Source of the DNA: Escherichia phage LQ5
Length of the DNA: 64,000 bases
Sequence record: OR677401
Reading direction: 5' to 3' (one strand)
Positions 966-43,986 of the stretch are shown in pieces; the stretch's first letter is position 1, and each line of letters begins with the position of its first letter. The notes beneath the pieces are model-generated. The model searched no databases. It was not told the origin of the DNA and saw only the letters and a list, made by a program, of their open reading frames with translations. The position numbers were made by a program, and so were the translations under genes.

Positions 966-1002
966 ATCAATAACGGAGGCTTCGGCCTCCTAATGAGGAA
1001 TT

Positions 1003-1200
1003 ATGTTAGGTTACCAAGCACGTGTAGTTGAAGAATACGACCAGTTGGTTCTTAAAATTACCGCACTAGAAACCTTTATTGAAGGTGGTGTTTTTGAAAC
1101 TCTTGATATCCGTCAACAAGGGTTACTGATTGCACAACTGGATGCGATGGGCGCTTATGCTCATTGTTTAGAGGTTCGTATTTCTTATTTCGGTGAGTAA
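1003..1200 (+). CDS. hypothetical small protein
   Basis: 65-aa ORF with SD-like GAGG 8 nt upstream, preceded by UUCG-tetraloop hairpin. Confidence 0.4.
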   Translation: MLGYQARVVEEYDQLVLKITALETFIEGGVFETLDIRQQGLLIAQLDAMGAYAHCLEVRISYFGE

Positions 1201-3528: not shown

Positions 3529-3978
3529 ATGAATACTTATATGACTCGCCGTAACGTTCTGTCTGCTGGTGCTACTACTGTTGCTTATGTTAAGAACGGT
3601 GAATACCAAAATGGTAAACCTTCTAAAGAAATCTCTGCTCAGCCAGGCTTCTACTTCTTTGTTAAAGGTGGAGCTGATTCTCGTGTCGTAGCGGCTCGTT
3701 TTTATGTCGGTAATCAACGTTCGGCCCAAGGGCTCGACGGTATCGTGGCTAACATTCGTAAGAAACGTTCTCAATCAGCTCGCACTATGGCAGTGAACGG
3801 TGTTGTGTATGAAGTTCTTTATGTACCGGCTTCTAAGATGAAACCCCTGACTACAGGTTTTGGTAAGGGTCAAATTGCAATGGCTTTCACTCGTAATCAT
3901 AGTTCCGACCTCCAGACACTGGAAGAAATGAACCGTATGTTGGCTGATAACTTTAAATTCATCCTGCAGGCTTACTAA
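3529..3978 (+). CDS. ndd: Ndd nucleoid-disruption protein
   Basis: 149 aa; C-terminus ...[11 protein letters not shown]...[24 protein letters not shown]...[20 protein letters not shown] matches T4 Ndd as I recall it. Confidence 0.85.
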
Positions 3979-4055
3979 TGAGTAATTTCCATAACGAGCA
4001 TGTGATGCAGTTCTATCGTAACAATCTTAAAACTAAAGGCGTCTTCGGACGCTAA
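3978..4055 (+). CDS. stp: Stp peptide (suppressor of three-prime phosphatase; modulator of the EcoprrI/PrrC anticodon-nuclease system)
   Basis: 25-aa [28 protein letters not shown] overlapping the ndd stop (TAATG); essentially identical to T4 Stp. Confidence 0.8.
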
Positions 4056-4065
4056 TGAGGAAAAT

Positions 4066-4227
4066 ATGGTTATCCTAGTTTTTATTGAACTTATTATGGC
4101 TATAGTCTGTTCAGTTTGCTTCTTTTTAGGTGTGTGGGCCCCTGGTCCGATATTCTTAAGTTTTCTGCTTATTGGTTGGGTTCTTTCTACTTTTGTCGGT
4201 TTACTTAAGACGATTAAAAATGATTAA
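4066..4227 (+). CDS. small membrane protein, Ac-like by position
   Basis: 53-aa hydrophobic ORF (MVILVFIELIMAIVCSVCFFLGVW...) after hairpin + TAATGAGGAAAATATG; T4 has the 51-aa membrane protein Ac here. Confidence 0.4.
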   Translation: MVILVFIELIMAIVCSVCFFLGVWAPGPIFLSFLLIGWVLSTFVGLLKTIKND

Positions 4228-5693: not shown

Positions 5694-5793
5694 GCCTTGG
5701 AGTCGAGTTCTTGTTACTCTGTATCTTTGCTGTTATTCTGGGCCTGGCGACAGGCTTAGCTATAGGTTTAATAGCAGCTCACTTTAAAAAGTA
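5690..5793 (+). CDS. putative 34-aa hydrophobic peptide
   Basis: ATG overlapping gp52 stop; MSLGVEFLLLCIFAVILGLATGLAIGLIAAHFKK; followed by terminator; exact ends +/-1 nt. Confidence 0.3.
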
Positions 5794-5816
5794 AGGAACC
5801 TTCGGGTTCCTTTTTT
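5794..5816 (+). terminator. rho-independent terminator (GGAACC-UUCG-GGUUCC + U7)
   Basis: perfect 6-bp GC-rich stem, UUCG tetraloop, T-run. Confidence 0.7.
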
Positions 5817-5833: not shown

Positions 5834-5862
5834 GTTTACTTCTGCTTTAAACATGATACTAT
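5834..5862 (+). promoter_or_regulatory. T4-type early promoter (-35 GTTTAC, 17-nt spacer, TGATACTAT extended -10)
   Basis: gtttac at 5834-5839, tactat at 5857-5862; a TGCTTTA MotA-box-like heptamer also lies inside. Confidence 0.6.
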
Positions 5863-5900
5863 AGACCTATCAAAACAATAGAGTGAAATGGAGATACAAA

Positions 5901-14010: not shown

Positions 14011-14038
14011 GAAAACGAAAAAGGAACCCGAAGGTTCC
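14011..14038 (-). terminator. stem-loop/terminator after gene 35 (minus strand)
   Basis: GGAACC-UUCG-GGUUCC on the minus strand followed by U-rich run. Confidence 0.5.
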
Positions 14039-15160
14039 TTAATATTTTTCTCTAAATTCAGCGACCCAAACCTGGCCAGGTTTAGTGCCTGTTTTATCAT
14101 ATAGCTGGGCTATGGTAGTACCCATATTTTTAGTTTCCGTACCAAAGTTCATACGAATACCGTTAACACCAAATTCAGCAGGTTTTGGCTGAGGTTCTGA
14201 TTCAGATATCTCACCGAACATAACATTTCGAACTCCGCCTTGGCCAGCCGAAGCGGTTTTTCTGGCATAAAGGGTAAAGTCTGTAGTACCTTCAGGAACC
14301 ATTACAACCCGTTCAAATGTCATCCATGCACCGGCAGGAACGTTGGAAGGAACGTCCATATTAACTGTCCCGGTTAAAGCACCTGAGGCATTAAAAAATC
14401 TAACAGACATCTGAGAGGTCCCGACGTCTTTTAAAGCTTGGTCGCGCATTAATTGAAACTTAAGGTAAAAGAATTCACCTGGTTTCATATTATAATCTGT
14501 TAATGGGGTAGTAGGAGATTCGGTAGGAAATCGCTTAATTTCATCTCCCTCATTGCTTAGATAAGTGCTTTCGTCTTCAACAATTCTGACAGGATATCCT
14601 GTACCACCGACATCACTGATATCGTCAAATACTACTTCTAATGGAGTAGAAACATCTTCGACCAATACCCCATCATTATAAAGCACATGTTCCATTACTA
14701 TGGCATTCCTTCCTGAAACATAAAATGCAGAATAAGACGGCTCAAAACGGTCTATCAACCACTTAGTCGGGAATGCGGTACTTCCTGCCGCACGGAACCA
14801 ATCGATAAGTTTTTGTGAAGCATTTAATCTACCAGAAGATACTAAACAAACTATTCTATTGGCCGGTATAGAATTTATATACGTTATAAAAGCTTCAGAA
14901 ATAACATCAAAATCTTTTGTAAAACTATAAGTTTTGTTAGCCACTATTTTGGGTTCAGCACTAACATCGATTTCTATAAGGTTTAATCCATTTTGAAAAT
15001 TCTGGGAACCGAAGTTCCCATCTTGAAATTTAACATATGCTTTTGTGGTAGACTTAGTACAACTACCAGCTATACTAAGTTTATACCTTACAGCATTGTT
15101 TTCAGATAATGTAGGAACCTGGACATATCCTTGTCCAAATTCTGCCATAAATCTTTCCAT
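14039..15160 (-). CDS. 35: gp35 long tail fibre hinge connector
   Basis: 373 aa (T4 gp35 is 372 aa); position between 34 and 36. Confidence 0.8.
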   Translation of the reverse strand: MERFMAEFGQGYVQVPTLSENNAVRYKLSIAGSCTKSTTKAYVKFQDGNFGSQNFQNGLNLIEIDVSAEPKIVANKTYSFTKDFDVISEAFITYINSIPANRIVCLVSSGRLNASQKLIDWFRAAGSTAFPTKWLIDRFEPSYSAFYVSGRNAIVMEHVLYNDGVLVEDVSTPLEVVFDDISDVGGTGYPVRIVEDESTYLSNEGDEIKRFPTESPTTPLTDYNMKPGEFFYLKFQLMRDQALKDVGTSQMSVRFFNASGALTGTVNMDVPSNVPAGAWMTFERVVMVPEGTTDFTLYARKTASAGQGGVRNVMFGEISESEPQPKPAEFGVNGIRMNFGTETKNMGTTIAQLYDKTGTKPGQVWVAEFREKY

Positions 15161-18100: not shown

Positions 18101-19218
18101 TTATCTCCTACGGCAGCCTTAATATTTACTGTCTGAGCTTTACGGAGATAGTTCAGAGCAATCTTAACGACATCACCCTGGGCCACACCGGTAGGTAATG
18201 TGATATTAATTGTCTGGGGTGTCGTGTTATTAGGACCAAAAACAATAACACTTTCGTTAGCCAAGAGTTCAACATCGTCACGAATTACACGTAAACGAGT
18301 TTGTCGGTCGCCGTCCCAAACATACCATAATTTTTCGGTAGAGTTATAAACAAAGAATCCATCACCTGAAGTACGGAATTCCATGCTATGCTGGCCAGGC
18401 TTACCTAATGAAGATGACGCATCAAATGTTTCAACGATTAAGTGGAATTTACTTCCTAAACCATCGATATCAACGGTTTTAATAATATCACCTTGGTTCG
18501 CATACTTAGGAAGAGTAAACTTAATTACTGCACCTGAAGTATAACGACGTAAAACGTTATCACCCGCTTGTGATTGGAACTGGGCGGTGTTCGGTTCTAC
18601 ACGAATACCACGTTCTTCATTAGCTGCTTCCCAGAAATGCCATAAACGGTTGGCAAAGATAATCATATTATAGGAAAAAGGCTTCGTAATTAAGGTCTCA
18701 GTGAACTGGTTACCGAAACGGACAATTTTCTGATTACCACCACCTGGAGCAGAACTAGACTGGAGCTTAATTTCATTATAACCTACACGGCCACCAATAT
18801 CCTTGATTACGATGGTATCACCATCAGTAGGGTTCGGAGGCAGGGTAAATGTAGTAAAGCTAGCAGCAGAATCCACAGCAATATATTCACCGGAAGCCAG
18901 CTGGCGTGTAGGAGATGCTACGGTAATCCATTTAGGGTCAGTACGAGTTGCAGTCCAATAACCCGGTACAAAGGTTCCTGCTGGAGCATCGATATCACGT
19001 TGAGCAACCCAGATACGTTGGTCATGGATTACGGCAAACCCTTTCTTATATCCGCGCGTCTCGTCGTACGCCTGGATGGTGTTCTCATCTATAAAGAATT
19101 CAACGTTGACGCCGTCGTCTAATACATTGTAATCGGCTTTGGCAACATTGATAACTTTCTCGCCTGCAGCATCGAGTCCGGATGTAGCACGGAAGGCAGG
19201 TTTTAAAATATCGGCCAT
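15169..19218 (-). CDS. 34: gp34 long tail fibre proximal subunit
   Basis: 1349 aa; ...AGEKVINVA.AD...DGVNV...ENT.Q.YD.TRGY... and C-terminal ...LRIGNVRI.PDPV.K.VKFEW.E match T4 gp34; internal repeats ETRRG.A.IAT. Confidence 0.92.
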   Translation of the reverse strand: MADILKPAFRATSGLDAAGEKVINVAKADYNVLDDGVNVEFFIDENTIQAYDETRGYKKGFAVIHDQRIWVAQRDIDAPAGTFVPGYWTATRTDPKWITVASPTRQLASGEYIAVDSAASFTTFTLPPNPTDGDTIVIKDIGGRVGYNEIKLQSSSAPGGGNQKIVRFGNQFTETLITKPFSYNMIIFANRLWHFWEAANEERGIRVEPNTAQFQSQAGDNVLRRYTSGAVIKFTLPKYANQGDIIKTVDIDGLGSKFHLIVETFDASSSLGKPGQHSMEFRTSGDGFFVYNSTEKLWYVWDGDRQTRLRVIRDDVELLANESVIVFGPNNTTPQTINITLPTGVAQGDVVKIALNYLRKAQTVNIKAAVGDKIASSVQLLQFPKRSEYPPETEWVLNDVLTFNGNISYTPVIELSYIEDTATGGKYWVVAQNVPTIERVDSKDDLTRARLGVIALASQTQANVDHENNPEKELAITPQTLANRVATESRRGIARIATTAQVNQDTTFAFQDDLIISPKKLNERTATETRRGVAEIATQVETNTGTDDTTIITPKKLQARQGSESLSGIVTYTSTVGTTPATARDTVGTNVYNKNVGNLVISPKALDQYKATQVQQGTVYLSNQSEVNAGQSASGFANSAVSPETLHARVALDTRTGLIEIATQQETDTGTDYTRAVTPKTLNDRKATEGLTGIARIATQVEFDAGTLDNVISTPLKIKTRFNDTARTSVSAASGLVESGTLWNHYTLDIREANETQRGTARLATQTEVNVGTDDKTIITPLKLHSKKSTESSEGIIRVATNTETTAGTSKVLAVSPSGLKYVVQTETTWEATALRRGFVKLTEGALTHSGNKVTGSGVKFNSGTGLYENDDTVLNAANYPKTGYAVSSYEMNKTLQNFLPINATAVNSEKLDGLDSLQFIRRDVDQTVNGSLTLTKQLNLAAPLVSSSTANITGNTILGSLEVTGNSTFKNDVSVSSGKSIKFVGPQSGAGTWNSQGDTLAPIFAEINSTPDAKFHPIVKQRLGQGTFSLGTVNDGTRDFKIHYLPSPGSLESFYWTFNTTGDFAVNSGSISISKNANITGITTSNGVSTTTLNASALSSLQNVTTSGTIVSTGQVSANNGLVAQKYVRSVGVKPTLASQAPTAETVGFWSVDINDSATFNLFPGYWTMKTKRQVNIDTVQTKPAGVSDEIWNASGWLTETGAFSSPAIRYRNEDGSFGDEVLGTSGQKLRGTWFDYSVRDKEVKYPGTLTQFGNTLDSCYQDWVCYPTGLNGGTIRYTRTWQKNKNAWTTFSMVYTADNPPSAEEVGALPADNATMGNITILDWLRIGNVRIIPDPVTKSVKFEWIE

Positions 19219-23808: not shown

Positions 23809-23833
23809 GGGAAGACTTCGGTCTTCCCTTTTT
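23809..23833 (+). terminator. rho-independent terminator after gene 32
   Basis: GGGAAGAC-UUCG-GUCUUCCC + U5. Confidence 0.75.
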
Positions 23834-23844
23834 GGCATTTAATG

Positions 23845-23873
23845 GTTTACAATGCCTTTAAACATGATACTAT
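23845..23873 (+). promoter_or_regulatory. T4-type early promoter (repeated promoter/leader cassette)
   Basis: gtttac, 17-nt spacer, TGATACTAT. Confidence 0.6.
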
Positions 23874-23902
23874 AGACCTATCAACTACATGAGGAAATAA
23901 AA

Positions 23903-24553: not shown

Positions 24554-24582
24554 GTTTACAACACCTTTAAACATGATACTAT
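24554..24582 (+). promoter_or_regulatory. T4-type early promoter (repeated cassette)
   Basis: gtttac, 17-nt spacer, TGATACTAT. Confidence 0.6.
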
Positions 24583-24614
24583 AGACCTATCAACTAATGA
24601 GTGAGGAAAATAAA

Positions 24615-29475: not shown

Positions 29476-30615
29476 ATGTCTACAGTTTTTAATACCACCC
29501 CAGTTGATGTTTTAGTCGAGCCGATGTTCTTTGGTTCAGGATTGGGTATTGCCCGTTATGATATCCAACGTCATAAAGTATTCGAAGAGCTTTGTGAAAA
29601 GCAGTTGAGTTTTTTCTGGCGTCCAGAAGAAGTCAACTTGATGATGGATGCTGCTCAATTTAATAAGCTTCCACAATTCCAACAAAATATTTTTACCAAT
29701 AACCTGAAGTATCAATCACTTCTGGATAGTATCCAAGGACGTGCTCCTTCTGCTGCACTTCAAGCCTTGATTTCCGACCCTAGCCTTGATACTTGGGTTG
29801 CTACATGGACCTTTAGTGAGACCATTCACTCTCGTTCTTATACCCATATCATGCGTAACCTCTATACAGACCCATCTAAGGTATTTGATGAAATTCTGTT
29901 AGATGATGCTATCATGAAACGTGCCGAATCCATTGGTCGTTATTATGATGACGTTATCGAGAAAACTCGCCTTTATCAGAATGCTTTAGAAGAATATCAT
30001 GAGTTTAGCGAAGGCGTAAAACAGGCTAAATACGAACTAATGCGTTCTCTTTACCTCTGTCTGCACGTAATCAACGCCCTGGAAGCTATTCGTTTTTACG
30101 TATCTTTCGCATGCACCTTTAACTTCCACAAAAATATGGAAATCATGGAAGGTAATGCTAAGATTATGAAGTTCATTGCACGTGATGAACAGCTTCACCT
30201 TAAAGGTACTCAGTACATTATTCGTCAACTTCAACTTGGTACTGATGGCGATGAATGGGTTAAAATTGCTCAAGAGTGCGAACAAGAAGCAGTTGATATT
30301 TTCATGGAAGTTAACCGTCAAGAAAAAGAATGGGCCGCTCACCTGTTCAAAGACGGTACTTGCCCTGGATTAAATACTCAGAACATGGGTGCTTTTGTCG
30401 ATTACCTGACAGTTTCTCGTATGAAGCAATGCGGCTTACCATGTCCTATTACTGATGCCCCTGCCCGCCATCCATATCCTTGGATTCGCGAATACCTGAA
30501 CTCTGATGCTGTACAGGCTGCTCCTCAGGAAGTGGAAATCAGTTCTTACCTTGTAGCACAAATTGATAACGATGTTGATGAAAAAGTAATGGCATCGTAC
30601 AAGAAATATTTTTAA
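29476..30615 (+). CDS. nrdB: ribonucleoside-diphosphate reductase small subunit (uninterrupted)
   Basis: MSTVFNT.PVDVL.EPMFFGSGLG.ARYDIQRH.VFEEL...Q.SFFWRPEEVNLMMDAAQFNKLPQ.QQNIFTNNLKYQSLLDSIQGRAP essentially as T4 NrdB; no intron. Confidence 0.93.
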   Translation: MSTVFNTTPVDVLVEPMFFGSGLGIARYDIQRHKVFEELCEKQLSFFWRPEEVNLMMDAAQFNKLPQFQQNIFTNNLKYQSLLDSIQGRAPSAALQALISDPSLDTWVATWTFSETIHSRSYTHIMRNLYTDPSKVFDEILLDDAIMKRAESIGRYYDDVIEKTRLYQNALEEYHEFSEGVKQAKYELMRSLYLCLHVINALEAIRFYVSFACTFNFHKNMEIMEGNAKIMKFIARDEQLHLKGTQYIIRQLQLGTDGDEWVKIAQECEQEAVDIFMEVNRQEKEWAAHLFKDGTCPGLNTQNMGAFVDYLTVSRMKQCGLPCPITDAPARHPYPWIREYLNSDAVQAAPQEVEISSYLVAQIDNDVDEKVMASYKKYF

Positions 30616-30642
30616 GGAATGGGGCTTCGGCCCCTTATTGCT

Positions 30643-31056
30643 ATGAAAGAAATCGCAGACGAATTTAGCTTTATCAAGTACGTCACCCTAGAACTCCAAG
30701 ATGACGCCACCATAGCTCCACTTACGGTACCAAATAAACAAAATGTCATATATGCTATAGCGGTTGATGATATACTAGTCTACGTCGGGAAGACTAAAAA
30801 TCTTCGTAAGCGCATCAACTACTACCGAACCGCTATTAATCGTAAGGACCAAACGTCGGATTCGACCAAGTCCATTCTGATTCATGAAGCATTAATGGCA
30901 GGTAAAAAGGTAGAGTTCTATGCACGGCAGTGCTTTAATCTGTCGATGACTAACGAACTTGGAACTATGTCAGTTGAGACCATGTCTCTTGAAGAGCCAA
31001 TGTTCATAAAAAAATTTAATCCACCTTGGAATACCCAACACCGATTAAAAGGATAA
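30643..31056 (+). CDS. denA: endonuclease II (GIY-YIG family)
   Basis: MKEIA.E.SFIKY..LEL.D.......PNK.NVIYAIA.DD.LVY.GKTKNLRKRINYYRTAINRKD.TSDSTKS.LIH.AL matches T4 EndoII; preceded by GGGGC-UUCG-GCCCC hairpin. Confidence 0.88.
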   Translation: MKEIADEFSFIKYVTLELQDDATIAPLTVPNKQNVIYAIAVDDILVYVGKTKNLRKRINYYRTAINRKDQTSDSTKSILIHEALMAGKKVEFYARQCFNLSMTNELGTMSVETMSLEEPMFIKKFNPPWNTQHRLKG

Positions 31057-32209: not shown

Positions 32210-32237
32210 TTTACATCTCCTCATGATGTGTTAGTAT
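32209..32237 (+). promoter_or_regulatory. T4-type early promoter (cassette variant)
   Basis: gtttac, 17-nt spacer, tagtat -10. Confidence 0.55.
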
Positions 32238-32266
32238 AGACTTACCAACTAATGAGGAGAAAACAA

Positions 32267-39252: not shown

Positions 39253-39257
39253 GTTAT

Positions 39258-39282
39258 GGGACTCTTCGGAGTCCCATTTTTG
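39258..39282 (+). terminator. rho-independent terminator
   Basis: GGGACUC-UUCG-GAGUCCC + AUUUUUG. Confidence 0.75.
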
Positions 39283-39709: not shown

Positions 39710-39738
39710 TTTTACTTTGGTACAGGTTGTGTTATTAT
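39710..39738 (+). promoter_or_regulatory. early promoter with inverted repeat (GGTACAGG/CCTGTACC) bracketing -10 TATTAT
   Basis: ttttac -35-like, TGTTATTAT extended -10; leader duplicated from 39333-39373. Confidence 0.5.
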
Positions 39739-39779
39739 AGACCTGTACCAAATAATACGAAAACAAACTGGAGAATAAA

Positions 39780-40145
39780 ATGAACTACATCAACTTCGAA
39801 CGTAAATATGTTTCTAACGGTATCGCTGGTTCTTCTGAAGTTATTTGCCTGTGGAAACACAACAACGGCGCGGTGTGCGAAATCGAACAGTGCATGACTC
39901 CTAACTACGTTTATATGCGCTTTGAAAATGGTATTACGGTTTCAATCACATTGGAAGGTTCTACTTTTAAAATCGCTTTAGATGATGATTTCCGTCAACG
40001 TGATTTAGGTACCCATCCTTGCTGGAACGGTGTTAATCGTAAGCTTCTGGTTAAAACTTGGATTCGTCACATCCTGAGCAACCGAGCTAAACCTGAACAC
40101 CTGGAAGCAATCTTTGATGTAGTTCTGAACGAATTCGACATCTAA
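39780..40145 (+). CDS. hypothetical protein (30.x island)
   Basis: 121-aa ORF with GGAGAATAAA-ATG. Confidence 0.45.
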   Translation: MNYINFERKYVSNGIAGSSEVICLWKHNNGAVCEIEQCMTPNYVYMRFENGITVSITLEGSTFKIALDDDFRQRDLGTHPCWNGVNRKLLVKTWIRHILSNRAKPEHLEAIFDVVLNEFDI

Positions 40146-40186
40146 TCTTAAAAATGGAGGCTTCGGCCTCCTTTGAGGAAAATATT

Positions 40187-40474
40187 ATGTTTATGACCAC
40201 TTATTTTGATACTCGTAAAAATTTCTGTGAAGTTGTTTTCTCTAAAGCAGGTAAAGATGTTCCTGCCGACAAACAACCTACTCGTGAATCTATTAAGGCT
40301 TATGCCGATGTTGTATGCCCGGTAGAATTCCGTACTGTTAATGGTCGTGATACCCTAGCAATCACTAAGCTAAACCATGATATCAATATCGACCCAAGTG
40401 TCGCCCGTGAAGTCAATACCTCTGACATCTATGGTGGTAATGTTAAATCACATGGCTTTCAGATGAGGTTCTAA
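40187..40474 (+). CDS. hypothetical protein
   Basis: Track ORF 40154..40474; ATG after hairpin + TTTGAGGAAAATATT. Confidence 0.45.
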   Translation: MFMTTYFDTRKNFCEVVFSKAGKDVPADKQPTRESIKAYADVVCPVEFRTVNGRDTLAITKLNHDINIDPSVAREVNTSDIYGGNVKSHGFQMRF

Positions 40475-43783: not shown

Positions 43784-43966
43784 ATGAAAGCTTATTTAGA
43801 AACCGTGGTTATTGGATATAAAGAAGGTGGGGATGTCTCCACTGCAGTGTCCCAAATTGTCCTTGAATTTGAAAATGAAATCGCATTCGCTGATTTTAAA
43901 GATAATTTCGACCGCTATGAAAAGGGTCCTAAATTTGAAGTATACCGTACGTTGCTACCACTTTAA
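43784..43966 (+). CDS. hypothetical small protein
   Basis: Track ORF 43742..43966; ATG just after the ligase stop; followed by terminator. Confidence 0.35.
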   Translation: MKAYLETVVIGYKEGGDVSTAVSQIVLEFENEIAFADFKDNFDRYEKGPKFEVYRTLLPL

Positions 43967-43986
43967 GGCCTTCGGGCCTTTTCTGG
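43966..43986 (+). terminator. rho-independent terminator
   Basis: AGGCC-UUCG-GGCCU + UUUCUGG. Confidence 0.6.

Follow-up and report, generated by a model that had tools for sequence, protein, structure and literature searches.

Past the end of rIIB in this phage genome, a GC-rich hairpin closed by a UUCG loop stands directly before a ribosome-binding site (RBS), and similar hairpins recur at three other gene junctions. Are these elements part of a device for restarting translation on the downstream gene, as a first-pass annotation had it, or do they belong to the gene upstream? The stretch of DNA analysed here, hereafter the window (64,000 nucleotides of Escherichia phage LQ5), is that of a JS98/QL01-like Dhakavirus, a T4-type coliphage (Straboviridae, Tevenvirinae). 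Its first 6 kb align over their full length with Escherichia phage QL01 at 97.7% identity, many JS98-like phages being nearly equal, and both QL01 and JS98 are members of Dhakavirus. The early genes are encoded on the + strand in the order rIIB (ending at 965), a 65-aa open reading frame (ORF, 1003–1200), denB, ndd (3529–3978), stp, gene 52 and motA, and the synteny rIIB-denB-ndd-stp-52-motA, together with the match to QL01, bears out the identification; the nrdB/denA junction lies at about 30.6 kb and genes 30.9 to 30.2 at 39–42 kb. Both the Dhakavirus origin of the window and the membership of the four sites in the T4-type C(UUCG)G hairpin class are well supported.

The C(UUCG)G hairpins in the window and in related phages

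The four hairpins picked out in the first-pass annotation are borne out, at 975–990 (site 1, past rIIB), 4038–4053 (site 2, at stp), 40156–40171 (site 3, between genes 30.7 and 30.6) and 30621–30634 (site 4, between nrdB and denA), all on the + strand. Each has a UUCG tetraloop, a C-G closing pair and a Watson–Crick stem, and at each site the minimum-energy fold predicted for the local context is the hairpin itself (51–56-nt contexts, nearest-neighbour prediction, −9.7 to −14.8 kcal/mol). Hairpin 1, GGAGGC-UUCG-GCCUCC, lies 9 nt past the rIIB stop codon (963–965), has no U-tract and has a minimum free energy of −12.2 kcal/mol. Hairpin 3 has the same sequence and lies 10 nt past the stop codon of gene 30.7 (40143–40145), with z = −3.1. 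Hairpin 2, GGCGUC-UUCG-GACGCU, had been placed after stp but is found inside the reading frame of this stp-like 25-codon ORF (3978–4055, + strand; the stp annotation of T4 has this position): it falls within the last five codons, is translated as G-V-F-G-R, and ends on the U of the stop codon. T4 stp carries the same hairpin (GGCGUCUUCGGACGCC).

Hairpins of this kind are more frequent in the window than chance would give. The hexamer CTTCGG occurs 40 times in the 64 kb, as against 19.4 ± 4.4 in dinucleotide shuffles, TTCG hairpins with a stem of at least 5 bp occur 16 times (4.1 ± 1.9 in shuffles) and those with a stem of at least 6 bp nine times (1.7 ± 1.3). Taking as strong the 11 hairpins that combine a C-G closing pair with a stem of at least 5 bp, we find that 10 lie in sense orientation to the local genes and that all 11 have a G-rich 5′ arm. 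Nine of the 11 begin between −27 and +16 nt from the end of a sense-strand stop codon, a count that takes in a 34-codon ORF ending at 5794, and the distance to the next AUG is variable, from 8 to 96 nt.

A U-run or U-rich tail follows five of the strong hairpins (5793, 23809, 39256, 43965 and, on the − strand, 14021), and three of these are canonical terminators on the + strand. At 5793–5812, (U)AAGGAACC-UUCG-GGUUCCUU is followed by UUUU and the upstream stop lies within the stem; the hairpin and U-run at 23809–23828 lie 16 nt past the gene 32 stop, and those at 39256–39277 lie 3 nt past the gene 30.9 stop. These intrinsic terminators have the same architecture and the same post-stop position as sites 1–3, which differ in having no U-tract on the sense strand. 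The remaining two are AAGGCC-UUCG-GGCCUU (43965–43980, + strand), which has a weak U-tract and lies at the 3′ end of a 52-codon ORF positioned like T4 alt.1, the T4 counterpart being found at the alt.1 3′ end, and a hairpin identical to that at 5793–5812, which overlaps the gene 35 stop on the − (late-gene) strand at 14021–14040 and has a U-rich tail. A scan of the whole window against Rfam gave no family at gathering score.

The 16-nt sequence common to hairpins 1 and 3 (GGAGGCUUCGGCCUCC) is found, letter for letter, in more than 120 unrelated viral contigs, so the identity of the copies at 975 and 40156 need not mean copying and is weakened as a sign of it. Of 125 copies of this 16-mer in viral contigs, 64 have five or more T among the next 8 nt, as in a terminator, and 30 have a Shine–Dalgarno sequence (SD) and a start codon in the next 28 nt.

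T4 has a hairpin at each of the same four junctions, and its C(UUCG)G hairpins share the loop, the closing pair, the short GC-rich stems and the sense-strand intergenic location; nothing essential is different, although the T4 loops are UUCA at 30.7/30.6 and GCAA at nrdB/denA, and some stems differ. Further diversity was drawn from alignments and a phage GenBank collection, single-protein scans of viral contigs having yielded close relatives only. On the 3′ side of rIIB, 13 distinct hairpins lie 0–16 nt past the stop, some of them from distant metagenomic T4-like contigs, and six of six base pairs are doubly changed. Stems past gene 30.7 include GGAGGC/GCCUCC, GGGAGC/GCUCCC and GGGGC/GCCCC, with the loops UUCG, UUUG, UUCA (T4) and GAAA, and three of six pairs are doubly changed; among 13 distinct sequences of the nrdB/denA hairpin the figure is three of seven. 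The fractions of alignment cells that are paired, 100% past rIIB (36–71% with the partner slid), 97.6% at 30.7/30.6 and 90% at nrdB/denA (19–67% with the partner slid), are inflated by the anchoring of the alignments on detected hairpins; the compensatory changes themselves are real. Loops exchange between UUCG and the stable tetraloops GAAA, GCAA and GUAA, with UUUG, UUCA, UCCG and UUAG as single-base variants and CUUG in addition. Covariation at stp is uninformative because the stp peptide is conserved; synonymous variants there keep the fold, GGC to GGU giving a G.U pair and UUC to UUU altering the loop alone. Because they exceed chance frequency, are biased to the sense strand and show compensatory changes at the same junctions, the hairpins are RNA-level structures under selection.

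Ribosome-binding sites downstream of hairpins 1–3

At sites 1–3 the hairpin is separated by only 3–4 nt from a GAGGA element, which leads to an ATG (at 1003, 4066 and 40187). The 65-aa ORF after rIIB, an rIIB.1/denB.1-like gene, has an ordinary RBS at 991–1005 (+ strand), UAAU-GAGGA(995–999)-AUU-AUG(1003–1005). Past hairpin 2, the stp stop (4053–4055) and the ordinary RBS of an ac-like gene together occupy 4053–4068 (+ strand), UAAU-GAGGA(4057–4061)-AAAU-AUG(4066–4068), and gene 30.6 likewise has an ordinary RBS at 40172–40189 (+ strand), UUU-GAGGA(40175–40179)-AAAUAUU-AUG(40187–40189). The composite CTTCGG-N4-14-GAGGA-N3-10-ATG is present in three copies, as against 0.01 expected.

The hairpin and this motif had been read as one conserved module, but the motif also occurs where there is no hairpin. 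Of the 88 predicted starts, 15 have GAGGA in the 25 nt before them (as UGAGGA in 12), and 12 of these 15 sites are without a hairpin, which is present at just the three described above. UGAGGAAA-N-AUG is the generic early-gene SD and start codon of the phage, and the dominance of GAGG among T4 early-gene SDs has been published (Malys 2012). Exact copies of TAATGAGGA number four, two of which (2335 and 32250) lie directly downstream of early-promoter-like sequence. That sequence belongs to the early-promoter repeat of the window, TATAGACCTATCAAC, which occurs six times at up to 2 mismatches, five of them on the + strand, as against 0.2 expected, and is distinct from the hairpin sites.

Embedding of the upstream stop codon in the motif, which had been taken as common to these sites, holds for stp (TAA 4053–4055) but for neither rIIB nor gene 30.7. 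The TAA at 991–993 is not the rIIB stop, since rIIB ends at 963–965 and the TAA of TAATGAGGA is out of frame; gene 30.7 stops at 40143–40145, and the motif at site 3, TTTGAGGA, has TTT where the others have TAA. Similarly, the absence of a U-run, from which it had been argued that the hairpins are not simple terminators, stands for sites 1–3, all of which failed the sense-strand terminator scan, but not for denA, which has 5 T in 8 and passed it. Just 2 U occur in the 8 nt past the stem at sites 1 and 2 (UAAUGAGG), and at site 3 UUU directly abuts the stem.

With an ordinary SD and AUG, a stop codon embedded at one of three sites and a hairpin that tracks the upstream stop, the proposed re-initiation site falls away, and a special re-initiation device has no support. 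Across phages the position of the hairpin is fixed relative to the upstream stop and not to the downstream start. Past rIIB, some phages have a full terminator, in which 6–7 of the 8 nt of the tail are T and the next RBS follows at once, and Dhakavirus and T4 have 1–3 T. Being tied to stop codons, with a variable U-tract at the same post-rIIB position, the hairpin is an element of the 3′ end of the upstream cistron, and it abuts the next RBS at sites 1–3 because the intergenic spacers are just 37–41 nt. Partition-function calculations of SD and AUG accessibility, comparing the native sequence with one lacking the hairpin and one with the 5′ arm replaced in three context sizes, gave no consistent effect; insulation of the RBS by the hairpin is not supported, predicted accessibility being unchanged by either alteration.

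The denA hairpin between SD and AUG

The nrdB/denA junction (30613–30645, + strand) had been grouped with the others, but here the SD lies upstream of the hairpin. The nrdB stop UAA (30613–30615) overlaps the SD AAGGA (30614–30618), the hairpin GGGGC-UUCG-GCCCC (30621–30634, + strand) follows 2 nt past that SD, and an 8-nt U-rich spacer, UUAUUGCU, leads to an AUG at 30643–30645. There is no SD between the hairpin and the AUG, and this split arrangement is seen at site 4 only. The spacing from SD to AUG is 24 nt along the linear sequence and 10 nt with the hairpin looped out. The tail of the hairpin, with 5 T in 8, passes a loose threshold for terminator-like sequence.

T4 genes 38 and 25 are proven cases of such split SD-hairpin-AUG initiation, in which a spacing that would otherwise be too long is reduced by the hairpin (Nivinskas; Malys & Nivinskas; PMC3014915). 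The denA junction is like them in having the SD upstream and the AUG downstream of a stable hairpin and in keeping this layout across T-even relatives; it is unlike them, as they are described, in its U-rich tail and in the placement of the hairpin directly past the nrdB stop. Sites 1–3 differ from genes 38 and 25 in having the SD past the hairpin, at normal spacing. By this analogy, the denA hairpin most likely loops out to bring the spacing from 24 nt to approximately 10 nt. As the review PMC3014915 names only genes 38 and 25, denA may be a further, undescribed member of the split SD-hairpin-AUG type, and with its U-rich tail the hairpin may serve as a leaky terminator past nrdB as well.

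Eleven of the 12 genera examined have the order UAAGGA-hairpin-(6–9 nt)-AUG; their stems vary, and the loop is UUCG, GCAA, GUAA or UUAG. Besides Dhakavirus, eight genera were assigned from GenBank records: Tequatrovirus (T4), Mosigvirus, Gaprivervirus, Gelderlandvirus, Jiaodavirus, Karamvirus, Roskildevirus and Bragavirus. IMG/VR contigs of unassigned genus also have this layout, and its absence from Krischvirus GEC-3S is the sole exception among the 12 genera. T4 itself has the layout with the hairpin GGGCC-GCAA-GGCCC. In the T4 RefSeq annotation denA begins at a GTG inside the hairpin (144 aa), and four other annotated genomes use the AUG past it. The corresponding start in the window, an ATG at 30619 (GTG in T4) at the hairpin base, was rejected: the SD would abut it (0–1 nt), and a start codon is missing from this place in several genera (L046, L047, L049, Mosigvirus and others). 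Annotation of denA should begin at the AUG past the hairpin.

Proposed roles of the hairpins and exchange of genes at their sites

We favour, with moderate confidence, a reading in which sites 1–3 are decay-resistant punctuation of polycistronic early mRNA and the denA hairpin is the looped-out part of a split RBS. RNA polymerase would read through hairpins 1–3 because they have no U-tract. Once the message is cut downstream, the hairpin would block 3′-to-5′ exonucleases and shield the upstream cistron, and it may also cap the 5′ side of the downstream mRNA segment; the SD would remain single-stranded and initiate independently. Intercistronic stem-loops such as the REP hairpins of malE-malF stabilise segments of bacterial polycistronic mRNA by blocking 3′ exonucleases, and the likeness of REP-type stabilisers to sites 1–3 is a functional analogy in the proposed mechanism, with no relation in sequence. 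T4 intergenic regions are rich in CUUCGG hairpins, which stop reverse transcriptase and have varied roles, stabilisation of gene 32 mRNA among them, in the account that PMC8948821 gives of Tuerk et al. (1988, PNAS 85:1364); in one model, nuclease attack limits the delayed-early transcripts of T4 (PMC2988021). A role for sites 1–3 in mRNA stability or processing is consistent with this literature on the T4 CUUCGG hairpins, and a role in stability is probable.

Two nucleases were considered in connection with these sites. The RegB consensus, GGAGRAYARAA, calls for a GGAG(/U) that is single-stranded, lies within the SD and has A-rich sequence on its 3′ side (PMC3014915). The SDs of sites 1–3 were rejected as RegB targets: they read UGAGGAA and contain neither GGAG nor GGAU, and GGAG is present only where the 5′ arm of hairpins 1 and 3 is base-paired. 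The RNase E site that Ehretsmann reportedly described in 1992 is RAUUW, single-stranded and just upstream of a stem-loop; a site of this type, as at −71 of T4 gene 32, is not supported here, no AUU being found in the 15 nt upstream of hairpins 1–3, although RNase E sites of other A/U-rich kinds may be present.

Some observations count against punctuation. The SD past each of the three non-terminator hairpins is the strongest variant (3 of 3, as against 15 of 88 overall), which a pure 3′-end element does not predict. An stp mRNA trimmed back to its hairpin would lose the stp stop codon. Finally, the UUU past the stem of site 3 and the 5 U in 8 at site 4 make some termination possible there. If termination were the function, the hairpins would be leaky (attenuating) intrinsic terminators or pause sites at cistron ends that set the ratio of upstream to downstream expression. 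In vivo, 30–50% of transcripts end at a T4 hairpin that carries a short poly(U) (PMC2790892), and besides the tails of sites 3 and 4, of which the latter passes the terminator scan, the post-rIIB homologues with 6–7 U of 8 in other T4-like phages, a U6 at nrdB/denA in Gelderlandvirus and the T-rich tails of half of the 125 viral copies of GGAGGCUUCGGCCUCC all fit this idea. Yet sites 1 and 2 have 2 U in 8 nt and failed the + strand scan, the 30.7/30.6 hairpin is without a U-tract in every relative examined, and the stp hairpin lies within translated sequence. As an account of the four sites leaky termination is on the whole unlikely, but it remains a serious rival, mainly for sites 3 and 4.

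The strength of the SDs also bears on a role in translation, in which the hairpin would insulate the downstream RBS from upstream structure, attach to the 30S platform or hold back ribosomes that slide on from the upstream stop, and the next gene would initiate independently and strongly. The 3–4-nt gap before GAGGA at all three sites, a similarly short gap in relatives (1–9 nt) and the proven hairpin assistance of T4 genes 38 and 25, a type that denA resembles, speak for it; against this, predicted accessibility of SD and AUG is the same with or without the hairpin in three context sizes, 12 of 15 GAGGA-type RBSs do without one, identical hairpins elsewhere lie 57–88 nt from the next start, and the 37–41-nt spacers force the adjacency. 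Such a device is quite unlikely. Termination of antisense (− strand) transcription through the early genes is scarcely credible, even though A-rich tracts precede all three hairpins and the − strand, reading GGAGGCCGAAGCCTCC-ATTTTTAAGA at site 3, GTTATTGATT at site 1 and CTTTAGTTTT at site 2, passed the terminator scan: the − strand loop is CGAA, no special tetraloop, the sense-strand preference for UUCG (10 of 11) is left unexplained, A-rich flanks are expected because the genome is AT-rich, and no sign of antisense transcripts came to light. What is conserved might alternatively be DNA, a recombination cassette in which stop, hairpin and RBS provide the homology for ORF swapping, much as a promoter-less version of the PeSL cassettes that do so in RB49/phi1 (PMC2839356); the rearrangements in two relatives described below, with homology broken right past hairpin, RBS and ATG in one and an ORF inserted between two copies of the stp 3′ end, hairpin and RBS in the other, are in its favour. 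However, the strand-specific UUCG, the compensatory changes and the tetraloop swaps indicate that what selection maintains is the RNA fold and not DNA identity, stems differ among related phages, which would weaken homology, the recombination may be no more than a by-product, and with the exact 16-mer in more than 120 unrelated viral contigs identity need not reflect copying. We regard this last reading as very unlikely.

The PeSL cassettes of T4-like phages resemble sites 1–3 in their series of stop codon, AT-rich stretch, G-rich/C-rich stem-loop, SD and ATG, and they mark gene-replacement junctions (PMC2839356, PMC4122927). They differ in that sites 1–3 have no sigma-70 promoter and just 3–4 nt between hairpin and SD; a scan found no promoter-like site within 960–1005, 4020–4068 or 40140–40189. 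PeSL membership of sites 1–3 was rejected because they have no promoter.

Two genomes are rearranged at such junctions. In L016, a metagenomic relative, homology extends from gene 30.7 across the hairpin and RBS to 4 nt past the ATG, breaks, and resumes at the start of gene 30.5; gene 30.6 is replaced. In L058, an IME281-like genome, a 49-codon ORF is inserted past stp and is flanked by two copies of the stp 3′ end, hairpin and RBS; the second stp has lost its start codon. Both rearrangements resemble PeSL-mediated shuffling, but without a promoter.

It seems distinctly improbable that the series of stop, hairpin and strong SD is a functional, mobile, promoter-less counterpart of PeSL and that the denA junction combines an attenuator with a split RBS. 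If the mobile unit were real, the hairpin would uncouple the downstream gene from the upstream one and give it a fully exposed, RegB-resistant GAGGAAA site, and the conserved 35–40 bp would be a joint for the insertion, duplication and replacement of early ORFs, as in L016 and L058. If the denA junction were built in that way, it would fix a low DenA:NrdB ratio.

The hairpin class, its abundance between T4 cistrons and its several roles have been known since 1988. For the biology of the T4-like phages, the mildly new points are only the probable split RBS of denA and the hairpin–RBS joints found at points of gene insertion or replacement in two related phages.

UUCG hairpins and leader repeats elsewhere in the window

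Two further UUCG hairpins, both 20-nt terminator hairpins identical in sequence (AAGGAACCTTCGGGTTCCTT), lie on opposite strands, one at 5793–5812 (+) after a small ORF downstream of gene 52 and the other at 14021–14040 (−) after gene 35. At both, the TAA stop of the upstream gene sits within the stem. A strong 7-bp hairpin, UGGGAAC-UUCG-GUUCCCA, is located at 15003–15020 (−) within the gene 35 coding sequence, approximately 140 nt from the gene start and away from any gene end.

A separate early-promoter/leader cassette, containing ACATGATACTATAGACCTATCAACTAATGAGG, is found at 2734–2748, 5860–5874, 23871–23885, 24580–24594 and 32235–32249. Allowing up to 2 mismatches, the window holds 6 copies, 5 of them on the + strand, as opposed to 0.2 expected. 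The cassette looks like the PeSL-type (promoter-early stem-loop) repeats of other T4-like phages, and explains one of the four exact copies of TAATGAGGA in the window, at 32250; another exact copy, at 2335, is preceded by a more divergent promoter-like leader.

Folding, strand and start-codon context

The hairpins after rIIB (975–990), in stp (4038–4053) and between genes 30.7 and 30.6 (40156–40171) are all preceded by A-rich tracts, and, read on the − strand, 3 of 3 passed a terminator-like scan, as exemplified by GGAGGCCGAAGCCTCC followed by ATTTTTAAGA. In the predicted minimum-energy fold of the third (40147–40177), CUUAAA (40147–40152) pairs with UUUGAG (40172–40177), lengthening the hairpin with a stem extension that partly covers the SD. 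Judging from sequence, such an extension does not seem available to the relatives seen, T4 among them.

At the denA start region (window 30619–30645; 18940–18960 in T4, NC_000866), the T4 RefSeq start is a GTG within the hairpin, giving 144 aa, and the ATG 3′ of the hairpin is the annotated start in 4 other annotated genomes. The window also has an in-frame ATG at 30619, which an ORF caller would wrongly choose as the denA start.

The hairpin in other viral genomes

The exact 16-mer GGAGGCTTCGGCCTCC occurs in at least 120 unrelated viral contigs (L140–L259, from the viral_contigs scan) and is a hairpin of convergent popularity among them. Among the matches listed, 64 of 125 copies have at least 5 T in the next 8 nt, and 30 of 125 have an SD and a start codon within 28 nt downstream.

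Compared with window 39711–40474, a metagenomic relative (L016, 1132–2272) carries approximately 660 bp of unrelated sequence in place of gene 30.6; homology ends 4 nt past the ATG downstream of the hairpin-RBS cassette and restarts at the start of gene 30.5. In an IME281-like genome (L058, IMGVR_UViG_2974734865), the counterpart of window 3978–4080 spans 850–1247, where ndd is followed by a stp variant with hairpin and RBS, an inserted 49-codon ORF (MNILQGF...) and a second stp remnant. This remnant, 96% identical to window 3980–4080, has no stp start codon but carries its own hairpin and RBS. A hairpin-RBS cassette thus stands on each side of the ORF, and the insertion is therefore flanked by direct repeats of the cassette.
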